Assembly: GCA_947626095.1 (NCBI GenBank) | Contig: CANQQV010000007.1 | Span: 18,464-82,463, forward strand | DNA: 64,000 bases | Direction: 5' to 3' | Origin: an uncultured Bacilli bacterium | GTDB lineage: Bacteria; Bacillota_I; Bacilli_A; RF39; UBA660 | In this document: piece after piece, positions 42,719-49,745 of the stretch | How the letters are laid out: each line of letters opens with the position of its first letter | Numbering within the stretch: the first letter of the stretch is position 1 | Notes under the pieces: model-generated | The model's database searches: none | Seen by the model: the letters and a program-made list of their open reading frames with translations, nothing else | What the model was told of the DNA's origin: nothing | Made by a program: the position numbers and the translations under genes

Positions 42719-45139
42719 CTACTTAACGACAATATTAACTATTTTACCTTTAACAACTATTACTTTAACAACTTCTTTACCTTCCATAAACTTAATTACA
42801 TTAGGTTCAGCCATTGCTTTAGCTTTAACACTTTCTTCATCTTCATCAACACTAATTGTAATAGAAGCTCTTAATTTACCATTTACTTGAACGCCAATTG
42901 TTCTTTCATTATCTACCGTTTTAGCTTCATCATAAGTTGGCCACTTACTATTACATATAGGTTCATAACCAATTTGTTCATTTAGTTCTTCTGTAACATG
43001 TGGTGCTAAAGGATTTAATAATGTTAATAAGACATGATAATCTTCTTTCGTGATACTTTCTTTATCATCATAAGCATTAGCTAAAATCATTAAAGTTGAA
43101 ACAACCGTATTATAAGCCATATGGGTTAAATCATATTCAACCTTTTTAATACTCTTATGAATTAAACTTTCTAAGTCTTTAGAATATTCTTTACCATCTA
43201 CTACTTTATCTTTTAATCTAACTACTTTATCAATAAAACGTTTACATCCTCTTAATGAATCAGTACTCCATGGAGCATCTTGTTCATAATCACCCATAAA
43301 CATTTCATAAACTCTTAAAGTATCGGCCCCATATTCTTTAACAATATCATCAGGATTTATAACATTGCCTTTTGACTTACTCATCTTTTCATTATTAGAA
43401 CCTAATACCATACCATGACTAACTCTTGTCCATATCATTTCTTTATTAGGTACTAAGCCAATATTGTATAAGAATTGGACCCAGAATCTTGCATATAATA
43501 AGTGTCTTGCAGTATGTTCCATCCCACCATTATACCAATCTACTCTATTCCAATACTTCATGGCATCCATTGAAGCAAATTCTTTATCATTATGCGCATC
43601 CATAAATCTTAAGAAGTACCAACTAGATCCTGCCCAGTTAGGCATTGTATCTGTTTCTCTTCTCGCTTTACCACCACAACAAGGACAAGTGGTATTAACC
43701 CAATCAGTTATATTAGCTAATGGACTTTCTCCATCTTCAGTTGGTTCATACTCTGCTACATCTGGTAATAACAATGGTAAATCTTTTTCATCCATTGGTT
43801 GCCATCCACATTTTTCACAATATATCATTGGAATTGGTTCACCCCAGAATCTTTGTCTAGAGAAGATCCAATCACGCATCTTGTAATTATTTACAACACG
43901 TCCAATACCTTTTTCTTCTAACATCTTCGTTAAAGCTTCTTTAGCTTCTTTAACTGTTAAACCACTATATTCTTCAGAATTAACTAATCTGGCCTCTGGA
44001 TTTTCTAAATAATCATATTTTTCATAAGCTTTTTCTTCTAAGTTACCACCCGTAATAACTTCTACTATTTCTAGGTTATGAACTTTAGCATATTCATAAT
44101 CTCTTTGATCATGAGCTGGAACAGCCATAACTGCTCCTGTTCCATAATCACCTAAGACAAAGTCACCTAAGAAAATAGGAACTTCTTTACCAGTAACTGG
44201 ATTAATTGCTTTAATACCTTTAACTTCAACACCAGTCTTACCTTTATTTAATTCTGTACGATCCATATTAGATTTCTTACTAGTTTCTTCTATATAAGCT
44301 AATACTTCATCTTTATTTTCTACTCTTGGCATTAATTCTTTAATTAATTTACCATCTGGTGCAATAACAAAGAATGTAATACCATAAATCGTTTCAATAC
44401 AAGTTGTAAATATTGAAAATTTACCACCACCAACGATATCGACATCTACTTCAACACCAGTTGATTTACCAATCCAATTTATTTGGCCTAATTTAACTTT
44501 TTCAGCAAAATTTGTATCATCTAAGCCCTTTAATAAGTCTTCAGCATAATCACTCATTCTTAACATCCATTGCGCTTTTTCTTTTTGAATAACTGGACTA
44601 CCACAACGTTCACAAACACCACCAGCTGCATCTTCATTAGACAATACTGATTTACAAGTAGGACACCAGTTTACTGGAATTGTATCTTTATAAGCCATTC
44701 CATGTTTATAAAATTGTAAAAATTGCCACTGTGTCCATTTATAATACTCTGGATCAGTTGTTGAAAACTCTCTACTCCAATCAAAAGAAAAACCGATACT
44801 CTTCATTTGATTCTTAAAAGTTACAATATTTTCTTTAACTGCTTCTTTAGGATGAATATGATTTTTAATCGCATATTGTTCAGCCGGTGCGCCAAATGCA
44901 TCCCATCCCATTGGATATAAAACATTTAATCCTTGCATTCTTTTCATTCTGGCAATCGCATCTTGGGCCGTATAACTTCTAACATGTCCAACATGTAAAC
45001 CAGATCCACTTGGATAAGGAAACTCTACTAAGATATAGTATGGTTTCTTACTCTTATCCCCATTTTTAGCTTCAAAAGTATGATTATCATCCCAATACTT
45101 TTGCCACTTTTTTTCTATTTCTGTAAAATTATATTCCAT
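42719..45139 (-). CDS. leuS: Leucine--tRNA ligase
   Basis: FPYPSGSGLHVGH, GTGAVMAVPAHDQRD, SRQRFWGEPIP, KMSKS; ORF track start is 45148. Confidence 0.97.
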   Translation of the reverse strand: MEYNFTEIEKKWQKYWDDNHTFEAKNGDKSKKPYYILVEFPYPSGSGLHVGHVRSYTAQDAIARMKRMQGLNVLYPMGWDAFGAPAEQYAIKNHIHPKEAVKENIVTFKNQMKSIGFSFDWSREFSTTDPEYYKWTQWQFLQFYKHGMAYKDTIPVNWCPTCKSVLSNEDAAGGVCERCGSPVIQKEKAQWMLRMSDYAEDLLKGLDDTNFAEKVKLGQINWIGKSTGVEVDVDIVGGGKFSIFTTCIETIYGITFFVIAPDGKLIKELMPRVENKDEVLAYIEETSKKSNMDRTELNKGKTGVEVKGIKAINPVTGKEVPIFLGDFVLGDYGTGAVMAVPAHDQRDYEYAKVHNLEIVEVITGGNLEEKAYEKYDYLENPEARLVNSEEYSGLTVKEAKEALTKMLEEKGIGRVVNNYKMRDWIFSRQRFWGEPIPMIYCEKCGWQPMDEKDLPLLLPDVAEYEPTEDGESPLANITDWVNTTCPCCGGKARRETDTMPNWAGSSWYFLRFMDAHNDKEFASMDAMKYWNRVDWYNGGMEHTARHLLYARFWVQFLYNIGLVPNKEMIWTRVSHGMVLGSNNEKMSKSKGNVINPDDIVKEYGADTLRVYEMFMGDYEQDAPWSTDSLRGCKRFIDKVVRLKDKVVDGKEYSKDLESLIHKSIKKVEYDLTHMAYNTVVSTLMILANAYDDKESITKEDYHVLLTLLNPLAPHVTEELNEQIGYEPICNSKWPTYDEAKTVDNERTIGVQVNGKLRASITISVDEDEESVKAKAMAEPNVIKFMEGKEVVKVIVVKGKIVNIVVK

Positions 45140-45153
45140 TTTATTCACTCTTT

Positions 45154-46008
45154 CTAATTATGTTCTTTTAACCATTCTAAGATTACTTTAGTTGCTTCTT
45201 TTCTCTTTAAGCCATTAACCAGCTCTGAATTAACTAAAATACCATCTTTAACAATTACTCTATCTTGCATTGCATATTCATAAGTCTTATGATGTAATTC
45301 ATCTTTTATTTCTTTTAAAACGGTATCTTTATCTACCCATTCAACACTAAATACTTCATCTTCATCTAAATTCTGTTTATCTTTTTTACTATTTACTAAT
45401 TTAAATAAGAAACCAGTACATTCGATATTAAAGTATTTATCTTTATTAAAAGCATAATAATGATGATTTATTTTAGGCACTTCTTTTAAGAGTTTTAACT
45501 TACTATAACCTGTTTCTTCTTTTACTTCTCTTAAAGCACAATCTAATGGACTTTCTCCTTCTTTAATTGTTCCACCAATAAATAAACGTCCACCTTTTTC
45601 ATGCCAATTAATTGTGAGGTATTTATCATTATCTTCATCATAAACTATTGCTACTATTGAATTTTTCTTAAATTCATTATCGTGAGGTTTACCAGTTACT
45701 TCTTCTATTACTTGTTTTATTTCTATCTTATGCTTAACAGCATATTCATAATCTTCTTCATTATGTAAAGGTACTCCTCCTTTAGCTTCTTCTATCTTGC
45801 TATCTATATATATGGGAACCTTACAATCATTTATCGGATTAATTGCGTATAACTTCGTAAATCCCTCTTTAACTTTCGTCTCTAAATCTTTATTAGATCT
45901 AAGTAAAATATAACTAACACCATATAAAGTATCTACTTCTTTAACTGGTATTTCTAATACTTTATCACTATTTTCTACTTTAAATTTAACTACTTTACTT
46001 TTTGTCAT
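45154..46008 (-). CDS. Free-standing degenerate LeuRS CP1 editing-domain homologue with an inserted NUDIX hydrolase domain
   Basis: CP1-like DTLYGVSY, YAINPINDCKVPIY, VPLHNEEDYEYA, GILVNS...NGL...EA; Nudix box GGTIKEGESPLDCALREVKEETGY. Confidence 0.78.
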   Translation of the reverse strand: MTKSKVVKFKVENSDKVLEIPVKEVDTLYGVSYILLRSNKDLETKVKEGFTKLYAINPINDCKVPIYIDSKIEEAKGGVPLHNEEDYEYAVKHKIEIKQVIEEVTGKPHDNEFKKNSIVAIVYDEDNDKYLTINWHEKGGRLFIGGTIKEGESPLDCALREVKEETGYSKLKLLKEVPKINHHYYAFNKDKYFNIECTGFLFKLVNSKKDKQNLDEDEVFSVEWVDKDTVLKEIKDELHHKTYEYAMQDRVIVKDGILVNSELVNGLKRKEATKVILEWLKEHN

Positions 46009-46363
46009 TTTCTTTACCCCATTTTTTATTTAGATATTTACCATATCCAAAATACATACTAAAGATTAAAATTAAAATAATAACAAACGCAATTAATAAT
46101 TTAATGCCAATAAACCAACTATCTGGTAATAAACCAATTACTGTTATTGTAAAAGCTATAATAAAAGCATTAATAATAGCAATTGTATTTAACAACTTAC
46201 GATAATTCATTTTCTTTTTATCTAAATTAAATTTTTTCGTTATAATTACTAACTCAGATATCTTTGTATACTTTTCTTTCTTGAGCATATCATCGAAAAT
46301 AAAGTAATAAACAAAGTATACAACCATAAAGACGATTAAAAAGAAGACTAAATCAAACATCAT
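45995..46363 (-). CDS. Small 3-TM membrane protein, first gene of the leuS operon
   Basis: Three hydrophobic helices; RBS GAGGT; overlaps the next gene. Confidence 0.7.
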   Translation of the reverse strand: MMFDLVFFLIVFMVVYFVYYFIFDDMLKKEKYTKISELVIITKKFNLDKKKMNYRKLLNTIAIINAFIIAFTITVIGLLPDSWFIGIKLLIAFVIILILIFSMYFGYGKYLNKKWGKENDKK

Positions 46364-46379
46364 AAAACCTCACTTTCCA

Positions 46380-46574
46380 AAATAAAAGACATCTTCGTAT
46401 AAGGACGAAAATGTCGTGGTACCACCTTAATTTCTGATATAAATCAGCTTTAAATTGATAACGGAATTACCCTCAAAGCTCCAAAAGCAAGTTCAGATAT
46501 CTATCATCCTAATTTTCACCATCCATTAGGTCTCTATAATGAATTAATATCCTACTACTCTTTCTTCATCACTT
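46380..46574 (-). ncRNA. Canonical Leu T-box riboswitch
   Basis: 99-nt stem I with GA motif, AGAGA bulge, GGTGAAA loop, GAA-CTT-G specifier (Leu, 46491-46489); AAGGTGGTACCACG T-box; terminator GACATTTTCGT/ACGAAGATGTC plus T run. Confidence 0.92.
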
Positions 46575-46625
46575 AAAATATATTAAATGTATTATAAAAT
46601 ATCTTTATTTTTAAATCAAGAACAA

Positions 46626-47126
46626 TTAATGACTCATTGTTGGTGCTGAATCATCATAATCAATTCCAAGTTTATTTGCATACACTGATAATTCATATGA
46701 AACATATGCATCATCATAATAACCGATATTTTTTAAATAAGTAAAGTATGCAGCAGCTGCTTGCATCTTTCTTAAATCACATGTATCTTTATCTATTTTA
46801 CCAGCTTTAAGCTCTTCTGTTGCTTCAGCTACTCTTCTATCGAACATACTCATATGAAGTCCATTAGTTAATATATGATGAATTCCAATTATTGTCCCTG
46901 ATATCGGTCCATGTTTTTGAATTGCAAATCTCATTTTATTCTTAATATTTTCTGTATATGTAGCATAAGCATCTACAGGTCCCTGTGTTGGTGAGTGAAC
47001 ACTACCTCCAGCAGGAGCTGCAAACGGATTAACTACATGGCCATTAACCATTATTTTACCAGAACGGCTTACTGGCATTCCACCCATCATACCTCTTCTA
47101 GGTCCTCTTGGTCCTCTTGGTGGCAT
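46626..47126 (-). CDS. Hypothetical protein with Pro/Arg/Gly-rich N-terminus
   Basis: AAGGGG RBS; PPRGPRGPRRG start; helical C-terminal half. Confidence 0.65.
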   Translation of the reverse strand: MPPRGPRGPRRGMMGGMPVSRSGKIMVNGHVVNPFAAPAGGSVHSPTQGPVDAYATYTENIKNKMRFAIQKHGPISGTIIGIHHILTNGLHMSMFDRRVAEATEELKAGKIDKDTCDLRKMQAAAAYFTYLKNIGYYDDAYVSYELSVYANKLGIDYDDSAPTMSH

Positions 47127-47164: not shown

Positions 47165-49645
47165 CTAAATTTGTGCAACATACTCTAATAATTTCATAAA
47201 CATATTAACGAATTTCTTATCCAAACCTACTTTATGTAAGTTTCTTATTTCTACACGTTTTCGATCAATACTCATATTAGAGAAGACTATTTTACCAATT
47301 TGTTCTTTTAATATTGTCTTAATTTGTAAATCAGAAATAATTGAATCAATATCTTCATTAATTAATCTAACTGCATCTATTTCAATATCTTTACCTTTAC
47401 AATTAATTGTTAATTGTTTAGTCGTTGGAACATCATTAACTTCAACAATAAAATCAGTATCTTCAATATAACAATCTCTATCTACTTTTTCATTATCTAT
47501 ATATACAATAACATCATTAGCTTCTCTTGTATTTCTAAATCTAATACGATAATTTCTCTTAGCTGGTACAATACCTGTCTTACCTTCTACTGGTCTAATA
47601 ATCATTGTATAGTTATTAGCCATATAGTTATAATCAACTCTTGTAAGTAAGTAATAACCTTCTTTATATAAGTTACTAAATCCATCATCTTCATATAAAT
47701 TATACTGATTACTCTTACCAGGGAAAACATGTATTTCCATTGTCTTAGGACTATTAGTAACATTCATGTTATTTTCTAAATCAGCCATACATATTATTGA
47801 ACCATCCCTCGCAAACACTGGATAATCTTCATCTTTATAGAATAAAATATATCTTTTATTACCTAAATATTTCTTACCTGTCTTAAAATCATACCATGTT
47901 CCTTTAGGTAAGAATATTCTTTCAACTGATCTATTCATAACTTCATCTTTAGGCTTTGTAATTGGTGCTACAAATAATTCAGATCCATAATAATATTCAT
48001 TTTGATAATCTAATTCATCATATATTTCTGGATATTGATAATATACTGGCTGAACTAATGGTAAACCAACTTTGTGATATTTATAAGCTTCTGAATATAA
48101 ATAAGGTATTAATTTATGTCTCATTTGACAATATAATCTAACAATATTTAAAGTCTTAACATCCCATTTCCATGGTTCTCTTTTATAATATCTTCCATAC
48201 TTCGCACTAAATCTAAATATTGGACTAAAAGTTCCATATTGAACATATCTTATATATAATTCTGAATCTTCAATACCATCTTTATATCCGCCAACATCAT
48301 GACTCCACCATGATAAACCTAAATTAGAAGATGTACTATTATAATATGGTAATAACTTTAACGTATTCCAACTAACTAACGTTTCACCACTATAATGGAC
48401 AGGATATAAATGAGGTGCATATGTATTAGCTCTACTAAGTATTAAAGGTCTAACTCCTTCCATCTTATTAAAATCAGTAAAATGATAATAGTTTAAAGCA
48501 TCATTCGCTGCTTTATCTTTTAAATTACGATAATTAATCCAAAAGAAGTCAACCCCTATTTTATATAACGGATCAATAAGATTACTTAAATAAGCACTCA
48601 TTAATTCTTTATCAAAGGCATTAAACGGAATAGCTTGTTTATCACCAACACCTACTACTTTAGCTATTTCGTCAAACTTTGGTTCATGTGGATGAATACC
48701 TTCACTAGGATCTAAACTAAGTCCTACTCTAACTCCACGATCATGCATATACTTAACAAATTCCGTTGGCTTATAAAATAACTCACGATTAAAAGTAAAA
48801 CCAGAATTAAATCTCGCCAAATTATTTTTATCTTTTAAATGCCAATTATCACCAAGTAACAAAATACTCATTGGAATCTTATTACGATTGAAATCCATTA
48901 ATAACTTTTGCACATCTTCAAAGTTATACATTTCATTCTTATTCCACCAAATGCCTAAAGCATATCTTGGTATTAAAGGAGGCATTCCCGTTAAAGTAAA
49001 ATAATTATGTAAACAATTACCAAAATCTTTATTATACATAAAGACATATACATCAATACGTTTCTTATCATTAAATATTAAAGAACCATCTTCACCGATT
49101 ATATTTGAAGCTGAATCATCAATTGAAACAAATCCATCAGATGAATATAATCCTTTTGCTTTAGCTACTAACATATCTTCTACTTTTCTTTTAATATGCT
49201 TAAAGTCTTGAACTTCACTTTCTCCTAAGAAAGGATCGTTTGTTCTATCAATATTAGCTACAATTCCTTTATAATTACGTGCTTCTGGATGACCATAATA
49301 CCATTCTTTATTATTAGCATCTAAAAGTTTAATGCTTAAAATACTATCTGGTGAATATTTATTACCAGCAAAAGACTTCTCTTTTTCATAACGTAAATTA
49401 AAATACTTAGTCGTTATATCTAATATTCTCTCATTTTGATCTACTTTCATTTGCGGAATCGAAAAATTTCTAAACTTCGCAAATTCTGTTGGCCGATCTT
49501 CAAAGTATCCTTCTTCACTAAATTCTAATCTAACTAATAAATCACTTAAAACAGTAATACGATAAAATTGTCCTTTAAATACACTTTGTGGTTTACTTAT
49601 TGCGTTTTGATAATCAGGTTTAAAATGTTCTCCAAAATTAGCCAT
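47165..49645 (-). CDS. Glycoside hydrolase family 31-like protein (catalytic residues substituted)
   Basis: LTGMPPLIPRYALGIWW, WWSHDVGG, ELYIRYVQYGTFSPIFR, RHKLIPYLY, LYEDDG; GGAGG RBS before ATG 49645. Confidence 0.85.
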   Translation of the reverse strand: MANFGEHFKPDYQNAISKPQSVFKGQFYRITVLSDLLVRLEFSEEGYFEDRPTEFAKFRNFSIPQMKVDQNERILDITTKYFNLRYEKEKSFAGNKYSPDSILSIKLLDANNKEWYYGHPEARNYKGIVANIDRTNDPFLGESEVQDFKHIKRKVEDMLVAKAKGLYSSDGFVSIDDSASNIIGEDGSLIFNDKKRIDVYVFMYNKDFGNCLHNYFTLTGMPPLIPRYALGIWWNKNEMYNFEDVQKLLMDFNRNKIPMSILLLGDNWHLKDKNNLARFNSGFTFNRELFYKPTEFVKYMHDRGVRVGLSLDPSEGIHPHEPKFDEIAKVVGVGDKQAIPFNAFDKELMSAYLSNLIDPLYKIGVDFFWINYRNLKDKAANDALNYYHFTDFNKMEGVRPLILSRANTYAPHLYPVHYSGETLVSWNTLKLLPYYNSTSSNLGLSWWSHDVGGYKDGIEDSELYIRYVQYGTFSPIFRFSAKYGRYYKREPWKWDVKTLNIVRLYCQMRHKLIPYLYSEAYKYHKVGLPLVQPVYYQYPEIYDELDYQNEYYYGSELFVAPITKPKDEVMNRSVERIFLPKGTWYDFKTGKKYLGNKRYILFYKDEDYPVFARDGSIICMADLENNMNVTNSPKTMEIHVFPGKSNQYNLYEDDGFSNLYKEGYYLLTRVDYNYMANNYTMIIRPVEGKTGIVPAKRNYRIRFRNTREANDVIVYIDNEKVDRDCYIEDTDFIVEVNDVPTTKQLTINCKGKDIEIDAVRLINEDIDSIISDLQIKTILKEQIGKIVFSNMSIDRKRVEIRNLHKVGLDKKFVNMFMKLLEYVAQI

Positions 49646-49745
49646 CTTTAACGCCTCCATTTTATTCTAATCACTATCATTATATCAAAAATAATAATTT
49701 ATTACATCAAAAAACATTATGTTATAATACTACTTGGTGAAAACA

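Follow-up and report, generated by a model that had tools for sequence, protein, structure and literature searches.

Why should a complete gene for leucyl-tRNA synthetase (LeuRS) be preceded, in its own operon, by a second and separate copy of the LeuRS editing domain that is itself interrupted by a NUDIX hydrolase domain? The question is raised by a window of 64,000 nucleotides (the whole stretch of DNA analysed here) from contig CANQQV010000007.1 of an uncultured Bacilli bacterium (GTDB lineage RF39; UBA660), in which an open reading frame (ORF) of 284 codons plus stop lies just upstream of leuS at 45154-46008 on the minus strand, in agreement with its earlier description. An initial annotation read this gene, named FS1 here, as a free-standing copy of the CP1 editing domain with an inserted NUDIX domain, and proposed that it is either a trans-acting partner of LeuRS, active in quality control or nucleotide sanitising, or a relic of a displaced NUDIX-containing LeuRS. 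The answer that we favour, with a probability of roughly two in three, is that FS1 is the freed CP1-NUDIX module of a displaced NUDIX-bearing LeuRS (NUDIX-LeuRS), which was retained as a Nudix hydrolase rather than for trans-editing. All genomes considered are metagenome bins; that of the window is 91% complete, with 7.9% contamination.

Architecture and motifs of FS1

The two domains of FS1 are both recognised by Pfam, in which the protein matches the LeuRS editing domain PF13603 in three stretches (72 bits against a cut-off of 25, E = 5.8e-20) and the NUDIX domain PF00293 over residues 117-240 (59.4 bits, cut-off 21.1, E = 4.8e-16). In BLASTP with the neighbouring LeuRS, residues 55-101 pair with LeuRS residues 314-365 (21 of 52 identities, 40%, E = 8e-8, AINP...EYA) and residues 258-282 with LeuRS residues 388-412 (12 of 25 identities, E = 0.035, LVNS...L.E). 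These two stretches are colinear, and CP1-like sequence therefore flanks the NUDIX domain on both sides in the order found in CP1. The four motif pairs that the initial annotation quoted are indeed present in both sequences, and its description of a LeuRS CP1 copy with an inserted NUDIX domain, as well as the significance of the CP1 similarity, is borne out by these matches. Accordingly, the alignments place the N-terminal part of the CP1 fold at residues 1-105 (45694-46008, minus strand), with a degenerate Thr-rich motif but with H82 and D86 kept; Pfam and fold matches place the inserted NUDIX domain at residues 106-245 (45274-45693, minus strand); and the C-terminal part of the CP1 fold (LVNS...GL...EA...WL), which is the least constrained part of the protein, is aligned at residues 246-284 (45157-45273, minus strand).

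Both ends of FS1 lie at canonical CP1 domain boundaries, and the solved structures closest to it in sequence are those of isolated LeuRS editing domains (4k47_A, E = 3.4e-8). The AlphaFold2 (AF2) model of FS1 (pLDDT 79, pTM 0.60), when compared in VIA, matches LeuRS editing domains across model residues 2-284 at Z 12.4-13.6 with 129-138 aligned residues (8poq, Z 13.6, root-mean-square deviation 2.9, 129 residues; 4k47, Z 12.9, 138 residues; 1h3n, Z 12.5, 132 residues; 2ajg, Z 12.4, 132 residues). Model residues 101-250 match NUDIX hydrolases at up to Z 16.3 (2azw, 140 residues), and Foldseek pairs the NUDIX fold with 2b0v (E = 1e-7). FS1 has no synthetase body, i.e., no catalytic Rossmann body with an anticodon-binding domain; its score against the leucine--tRNA ligase profile TIGR00396 (47.6 bits) is far under the cut-off of 548.4, and the best stretch covers profile positions 289-371 only.

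The Nudix box, GTIKEGESPLDCALREVKEETGY, occupies residues 146-168 (45505-45573, minus strand), and its pattern G-x5-E-x7-R-E-V-x-E-E-x-G-Y matches the consensus GX5EX7REUXEEXGU. As for the editing site, when the residue numbers of Thermus thermophilus LeuRS are read from one alignment and transferred to FS1 via further alignments, T247 corresponds to V22 and T248 to K23, T252 is kept as T27, H343 and D347 are kept as H82 and D86, and the GTG loop (G333-T334-G335) is deleted in a 5-residue gap. Furthermore, approximately 45 CP1 residues between the positions of 'APEH' and 'KTGV' are gone. The claim that the catalytic Asp is kept and the Thr-rich and GTG motifs are lost thus holds for the Asp, for the GTG loop and for two threonines, but not for the third, which remains. 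In LeuRS, the Thr-rich, GTG and Asp residues bind or hydrolyse the aminoacyl-A76 end; given that most of these elements are lost, it is reasonable to assume from the motifs that FS1 does not deacylate tRNA.

The same division is seen across the wider set of sequences. Among 116 embedded modules (LeuRSs of more than 900 aa), the Nudix box, the Thr-rich motif and the Asp are present in all 116 and the GTG motif in 115. The 13 FS1 homologues (57-100% identical), every one an intact open frame of 276-296 aa, all have the Nudix box and the Asp, and none has the Thr-rich or GTG motif, so that the intact box first reported for FS1 is confirmed throughout. In 15 other free-standing representatives, the counts are 12 for the Nudix box, zero for the Thr-rich motif, two for GTG and nine for the Asp. 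From these counts, it appears that the editing site is maintained only within a synthetase, whereas the Nudix site is maintained in both settings.

Within this context, it is highly improbable that FS1 is a free-standing trans-editing factor that clears mischarged tRNA(Leu) in the manner of AlaX or YbaK. AlaX, YbaK/ProXp and ThrRS-ed are free-standing homologues of class II editing domains, which keep their catalytic residues and deacylate tRNA in trans. FS1 resembles them in being an aminoacyl-tRNA synthetase editing domain encoded by a separate gene, its CP1 homology and fold would suit such a role, and the equivalents of T252, H343 and D347 are still in place. However, FS1 is of the class I (CP1) kind, no longer has the catalytic motifs and houses an unrelated hydrolase; two of three threonines, the entire GTG loop and the CP1 segment are missing, the Thr-rich motif found in every embedded module is found in none of the 13 FS1 homologues and 15 other free-standing proteins, and even the Asp is lost in six of the 15 other representatives. 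In addition, the adjacent LeuRS is complete, and its own CP1 has the Thr-rich, GTG and Asp motifs intact. The trans-acting editing activity proposed at first is therefore not supported.

Among bacterial LeuRS CP1 domains (PF13603; 4k47, 2ajg, 1h3n, 8poq), FS1 fits in by sequence homology, fold and canonical boundaries, but it differs from them in that it stands alone, is split by NUDIX and is without two threonines, the GTG loop and the approximately 45-residue segment. Similarly, it shares the Nudix box and fold with stand-alone NUDIX hydrolases (2azw; RppH 4s2x; the Ap4A/Ap6A hydrolases 3i7u and 1vc8; Rv2985 9cxx), whereas its NUDIX domain sits inside another fold. That LeuRS tolerates fission at CP1, or the loss of CP1, is known from the naturally split alpha/beta LeuRS of Aquifex aeolicus and from the CP1-less LeuRS of Mycoplasma mobile, which we take to be the 637-aa chain 3ziu. 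In those cases, the pieces form one synthetase or editing is lost, whereas the window locus holds a complete LeuRS beside an extra and apparently editing-dead CP1. We considered but rejected a split LeuRS, given the completeness of the LeuRS downstream, and also a further leuS at another site, as a search of the 1.6-Mb genome found the window leuS as the only LeuRS. Full-text literature searches, with subscription journals outside their coverage, returned nothing on NUDIX in LeuRS or on a free-standing CP1, and we know of no prior description of a natural stand-alone CP1 homologue.

NUDIX-bearing synthetases and the probable release of the module

Where did such a protein come from? A search with FS1 among longer proteins gave 1805 matches. 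The best 120 are mostly PF00293-bearing LeuRSs of approximately 936 aa; their identity to FS1 is 48-63% (49-57% for the majority), and 96-100% of the query is covered in most of them. Against the CP1-NUDIX module of NUDIX-LeuRSs, the identity of FS1 is 50-66%. The embedded modules share the insertion point of FS1 (QV[IL]EEVTG...), a surface loop near the C-terminal end of CP1, but carry a full CP1. Indeed, the NUDIX-in-CP1 LeuRSs of uncultured gut Bacilli (e.g., P0041, 937 aa) have the same module, insertion point and context of T-box, membrane ORF and leuS as FS1, and differ from it as complete synthetases with their editing motifs in place. Database names for these proteins are generic, some records being labelled 'leucine--tRNA ligase' or 'class I tRNA ligase family protein'. 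In general, NUDIX-LeuRSs are approximately 935-965 aa long (P0041-P0160; L089-L094; L203, L204) and fall into two distant NUDIX types, both of which occur in tandem in P0138 (1105 aa).

The distribution of NUDIX-LeuRSs is restricted. When 200 other genomes from the family were sampled, strong matches (E <= 1.2e-63) in frames of 782-962 aa turned up in 39 of them, one further NUDIX-LeuRS is cut by a contig end and two are of the second, more distant NUDIX type, giving approximately 42 of 200 in total; most remaining genomes match FS1 over residues ~45-102 only, in LeuRS frames of approximately 800 aa. Outside the family, 265 genomes from 29 further families of the class yielded no NUDIX-LeuRS at E <= 1e-20. 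Within the genus (27 genomes), five genomes have a NUDIX-LeuRS. It should be noted that in six others (G202, G211, G212, G213, G219 and G224), the LeuRS of the window as query gave weak class I matches (best E 1e-17 to 1e-23) and no LeuRS, the gene being perhaps unassembled or missed by this first look; four of these genomes are 89-92% complete, G211 is 73% and G212 85% complete.

The junctions around leuS bear on how the module may have been released. In four genomes of the genus (G000, G205, G210 and G208, with 88%, 77% and 60% identity for the latter three), FS1 is located between leuS and a small membrane-like ORF of 122 aa, which in the window is the first gene of the operon (45995-46363, minus strand) and whose 3' end overlaps the FS1 start by 14 nt. 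At NUDIX-LeuRS loci, and in G214, G217, G209 and G222 (LeuRS 85-90% identical), the membrane ORF runs straight into the leuS start via a junction of approximately 21 nt, AGAAATGGGGAAAGAAAG-ATG. Nucleotide comparison of filled, empty and scarred sites reveals that FS1 loci have one copy of this junction before the FS1 ATG (46009-46029 in the window) and a second, diverged copy before the leuS ATG, i.e., the spacer at 45140-45160 (minus strand), which resembles the 3' end of the membrane ORF. The leuS gene that follows (42719-45139, minus strand; 806 aa from its ATG; TIGR00396, 931.8 bits; PF13603, 186 bits) encodes a NUDIX-less CP1. A scarred site is found in G225, in which the first 42 nt and last 17 nt of FS1 are left between the membrane ORF and leuS (L096) and approximately 770 nt are replaced by approximately 15 nt; the identities to G208 are 75 of 82 and 46 of 48. 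FS1 was therefore once present in G225 and then destroyed.

That LeuRSs change their CP1 independently of the rest of the protein is evident from pairwise identities of the body and the CP1 region. The window LeuRS is 82-83% identical to P0047, P0075 and P0113 in the body but 46-47% in the CP1 region, whereas against G220 the values are 50% and 70%; likewise, G216 shares 86% of its body and 49% of its CP1 region with G220, and 49% and 72%, respectively, with P0047. In the pair G201 and G204 (body 92%, CP1 region 87%), the NUDIX difference is a simple indel. This discordance indicates that CP1 has been exchanged as a cassette and that NUDIX has been gained or lost within CP1. The switch point lies at the conserved NWIGKS boundary, and the CP1 region of the window leuS is at ~43900-44490. 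In quick tree searches, with SH-aLRT (approximate likelihood-ratio) support only and midpoint roots, a LeuRS tree without the CP1 columns puts the LeuRS of the window in a well-supported clade with both NUDIX-bearing (P0047, P0075, P0113) and NUDIX-less LeuRSs, and in a tree of the NUDIX columns FS1 forms one branch (SH-aLRT 93) nested among embedded copies. This comparison with NUDIX-inserted LeuRSs is the phylogenetic check that the initial annotation had suggested.

How these observations might be combined is best put as a sequence of events. A LeuRS with a NUDIX-less CP1 would have taken over in the lineage of the window; a second, NUDIX-type leuS probably stood in tandem behind the same start junction; and this copy would then have been reduced to its CP1-NUDIX module, with ends at domain boundaries. 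Two tandem leuS alleles behind duplicated junctions, one of which was cut down to CP1-NUDIX, may be the simplest account of the locus. The idea of a relic of a displaced NUDIX-containing LeuRS is supported as to descent, in that FS1 is the module of a widespread NUDIX-LeuRS type behind an ancestral, duplicated junction, in a group in which close LeuRS bodies carry either CP1. It is not supported if relic means a dead gene, given the 13 intact ORFs and Nudix boxes and the selection described below.

Selection, persistence and recurrence

By the Nei-Gojobori method (NG86), which is crude for such an AT-rich genome, the ratio of nonsynonymous to synonymous substitution rates (dN/dS) among G000, G205 and G210 is 0.17-0.18 for the whole of FS1 and 0.03-0.05 for leuS. 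Within FS1, it is 0.10-0.12 for NUDIX, 0.15-0.18 for the N-terminal CP1 part (CP1-N) and 0.5-0.6 for the 39-codon C-terminal part (CP1-C). Against the more distant G208, the corresponding values rise to 0.40-0.47 for FS1, 0.25-0.27 for NUDIX and 0.07-0.08 for leuS. FS1 is thus under purifying selection, which is strongest on NUDIX. With respect to G208, synonymous divergence (dS) is approximately 0.74 for FS1 and approximately 0.71 for leuS (0.36-0.76 vs. 0.26-0.43 in the closer pairs); the near-equal values indicate that the two genes diverged together and that FS1 has persisted since those species split. The dN/dS check envisaged for the CP1 part gave a divided answer, with constraint on CP1-N among the close relatives and values of 0.5-0.9 for the CP1 parts against G208.

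FS1 is not alone. A second free-standing CP1-NUDIX lineage, FS2 (285-304 aa; 28-32% identical to FS1), is found in G218 and G223 of the genus and G108 of the family (L093:1435-2346, plus strand; L095:1444-2355, plus strand; L115:1618-2472, minus strand). FS2 has both Pfam domains, is without the same CP1 segment and GTG loop as FS1, and does not adjoin leuS; in L093, it lies between genes for a 2-hydroxyacid dehydrogenase and a 5'-3' exonuclease, with no T-box, and the genomes G218 and G223 also encode a NUDIX-LeuRS at another site. In the tree of the NUDIX columns, the NUDIX domain of FS2 clusters with the second of the embedded types (support 99). When 1.84 billion representatives were searched with a profile, 144 proteins were returned at E <= 1e-30, many of them long LeuRSs. 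When 20 short ones were fetched, 13 were compact free-standing proteins of 270-312 aa with a Met start, two more (P0286, P0288) were free-standing with a full-length CP1 segment, and the rest were fragments or ambiguous. Examples are P0294, whose contig measures 875 kb and whose only name is 'NUDIX domain-containing protein'; P0399, listed as 'MutT' on a contig of 1.1 Mb; and P0381, which occurs on 24 contigs of up to 326 kb. A related-locus search with P0381 gave one free-standing locus (L202, not next to leuS) and two NUDIX-LeuRS loci. The CP1 fold is kept in every free-standing lineage seen, including those that are 28-35% identical, and none of those with NUDIX has shed CP1. To judge from these sequences, free-standing CP1-NUDIX proteins arose at least twice, and FS1 is one of several independent cases in which CP1-NUDIX became a separate, apparently editing-dead Nudix protein.

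The P0288 cluster (12 members, 10 of exactly 347 aa, on contigs of up to 22 kb) has a different form, in which an N-terminal vestige of LeuRS (…EFPYPSG) is fused directly to a full CP1 with Thr-rich-like and GTG motifs, while the Nudix box has decayed (RG in place of RE) and Asn stands in the position of the conserved Asp. The cluster seems to be one more product of fission, decayed in a different way, and its architecture is that expected of an intermediate in the proposed reduction. Its genome was absent among species representatives, and a related-locus search with P0288 gave LeuRS loci only. There are also short ORFs with CP1-NUDIX pieces, i.e., P0028 (320 aa, 39-kb contig; joined to a Clp D2-small domain), P0029 (198 aa, 29-kb contig) and P0025 (161 aa, 86-kb contig), which may be broken NUDIX-leuS genes, frameshifts or assembly chimeras.

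Could FS1 nonetheless be a decaying, functionless relic of the replacement of a NUDIX-type leuS, open by chance or because of its recent origin, and heading for loss? The scar in G225, the five closely related genomes in which FS1 was not found, the loss of editing motifs and of a CP1 segment, the CP1-part dN/dS against G208, and the fact that FS1 is 57-60% identical between G000 and G208 where LeuRS is 93% identical would all fit such decay. However, we consider it unlikely. In all 13 homologues, the frame is open and the Nudix box perfect, although as many as 43% of residues have diverged and a very AT-rich genome is prone to stops; dN/dS is low in NUDIX and CP1-N among close relatives; dS against G208 equals that of leuS, i.e., the gene has persisted since the species split; both ends lie exactly at CP1 domain boundaries; and other lineages that became free-standing independently show the same reduction and are conserved across many contigs.

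Several findings nevertheless weigh against a module that was freed in place and kept as an enzyme. At E <= 1e-10, five type-A genomes of the genus, with LeuRSs 85-91% identical to that of the window, gave no FS1 match, and FS1 is dispensable in at least one lineage, as G225 (LeuRS 91% identical) holds only the deletion scar. Four of these five FS1-less genomes (G214, G217, G209, G222) have clean junctions, with G225 being the scarred fifth, so parsimony favours FS1 having been acquired later, after the NUDIX-less LeuRS was in place in the lineage, over an in-place relic; clean loss of FS1 by recombination between the duplicated junctions is equally possible. The constraint on FS1 is much weaker than that on leuS, on the branch to G208 the CP1 parts come near neutrality (CP1-N 0.5-0.8, CP1-C 0.83-0.90), and the quick trees and the crude dN/dS method carry the limits stated above. 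As regards activity, the NUDIX domain of FS1 reaches no curated NCBIfam subfamily (best 31.5 bits vs. a cut-off of 103), and its structural neighbours in Foldseek and VIA are tied across subfamilies. No complementary distribution was seen with YqeK, the Ap4A hydrolase of Bacillota (TIGR00488): YqeK is present in four of the 27 genomes of the genus, none of which has the module, but 14 of the 18 module-less genomes are also without YqeK, and in the family sample it is present in 15 of 201 genomes, six of which also have a NUDIX-LeuRS. Taken with these points, FS1 is what remains of a NUDIX-type LeuRS; it is restricted to one clade and, although under selection, dispensable.

Operon context and possible roles

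The operon order is T-box, membrane-like ORF, FS1 and leuS. The Leu T-box leader (46398-46578, minus strand) matches Rfam RF00230 over the full model (101.8 bits), its specifier reads GAA-CUU-G (CUU being a Leu codon), and a terminator-like site at 46388-46415 (minus strand) corresponds to its terminator stem. The FS1 stop is separated from the leuS ATG (45139) by 14 nt, or by 5 nt from the GTG (45148) chosen by the ORF caller, and the placement of FS1 in a Leu T-box operon just upstream of leuS is thereby confirmed. From this layout, FS1 is probably co-transcribed with leuS under the Leu T-box, and it would be so because it descends from leuS. A T-box leader occupies the same position in eight of 10 related loci scanned, and loci with NUDIX-LeuRS, NUDIX-less LeuRS and FS1 all have this succession of T-box, membrane ORF and leuS. 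A promoter-like site before leuS (45156-45128, minus strand) was set aside, as the region has 27 such sites vs. 34.9 expected by chance.

The conserved membrane ORF between the T-box and FS1, which the initial annotation had missed, matches no Pfam family above the cut-off. ORFs of this kind (approximately 120 aa, MF.L.FF...KYLNKKWGK), overlapping the start of the next gene, are conserved in the interval from the Leu T-box to leuS, in the genus and also outside it, and the ORF is directly upstream of leuS in genomes of every LeuRS type (window; L089-L100, L112, L203, L204). Further upstream, two ORFs are syntenic with the leuS operon in the genus, one of 166 aa (46626-47126, minus strand) with a Gly/Pro/Arg-rich N-terminus (MPPRGPRGPRRG...) and no Pfam family, and one of 831 aa (47165-49660, minus strand), a homologue of which is also found in L203 and L204.

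What might the retained enzyme do? In the reading that we favour, the FS1 product would be kept by selection as a Nudix pyrophosphohydrolase, and the CP1 part would survive only as the fold that houses the NUDIX insertion, i.e., as a scaffold. A nucleotide-sanitising role, as first proposed, is plausible. Our best guess for the substrate, a tentative one, is a molecule of the dinucleoside-polyphosphate or nucleotide-cap type, e.g., Ap4A. ApnA, diphosphoinositol (DIPP) and decapping enzymes make up six of the top nine VIA rows, with Z tied with other subfamilies. All 13 FS1 homologues have a Tyr at +16/+17 after the Nudix box, a position that, in work by Dunn et al. from 1999, is said to mark ApnA hydrolases. 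An ESM Atlas search with FS1 residues 106-250 returned only clusters named 'NUDIX domain-containing protein' (0.93-0.94); three of five Atlas stretches fetched contain stand-alone NUDIX proteins from this family, one with 36% identity across 85 residues, and none reaches a curated family.

The retention of the CP1 fold even at approximately 30% identity leaves room for a docking role. One version of it is that FS1 is a trans partner of LeuRS or tRNA(Leu), in which CP1 docks and NUDIX acts on a by-product or RNA end, the NUDIX-LeuRS being the equivalent in cis. In its favour, CP1 is retained in all free-standing lineages seen, the positions D26, G30, P58, P65, I66, P80, H82, D86 and Y87 are invariant across FS1 and FS2, co-transcription with leuS is expected from the gene layout, and the presence of NUDIX inside an otherwise intact CP1 in 116 of 116 LeuRSs suggests a link with LeuRS function. 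However, the other free-standing lineages (FS2, L202) are located away from leuS, the conserved positions may serve only to determine the fold, what has been lost includes the very loops that are known to hold the 3' end of the tRNA, and NUDIX is absent from approximately four-fifths of the LeuRSs of the family and so is accessory. Such a partnership is very doubtful. A broader proposal, which we regard as rather unlikely, is that CP1-NUDIX is an autonomous leucine-decoding module that works in cis in LeuRS or in trans; its free-standing CP1 fold would be a docking platform that places the Nudix domain at LeuRS or tRNA(Leu), where it would destroy a nucleotide by-product or RNA-linked nucleotide made there (e.g., Ap4A, Np4A or an NAD cap), and repeated fission and cassette shuffling would reflect selection on the module itself.

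The locus amounts to a dated natural experiment, in which the same module is found embedded with editing intact, freshly freed, reduced and deleted among LeuRSs that are 85-98% identical. Comparison of these states shows which CP1 elements serve editing only and which serve the fold, and presents CP1 as an exchangeable cassette. It also makes testable the role of a Nudix hydrolase inside an aminoacyl-tRNA synthetase, for which the small FS1 protein should be simpler to express and assay than a 940-aa synthetase of an uncultured gut bacterium. If the docking-platform proposal were true, the free-standing forms would be the first naturally occurring homologues of a class I editing domain to stand alone.

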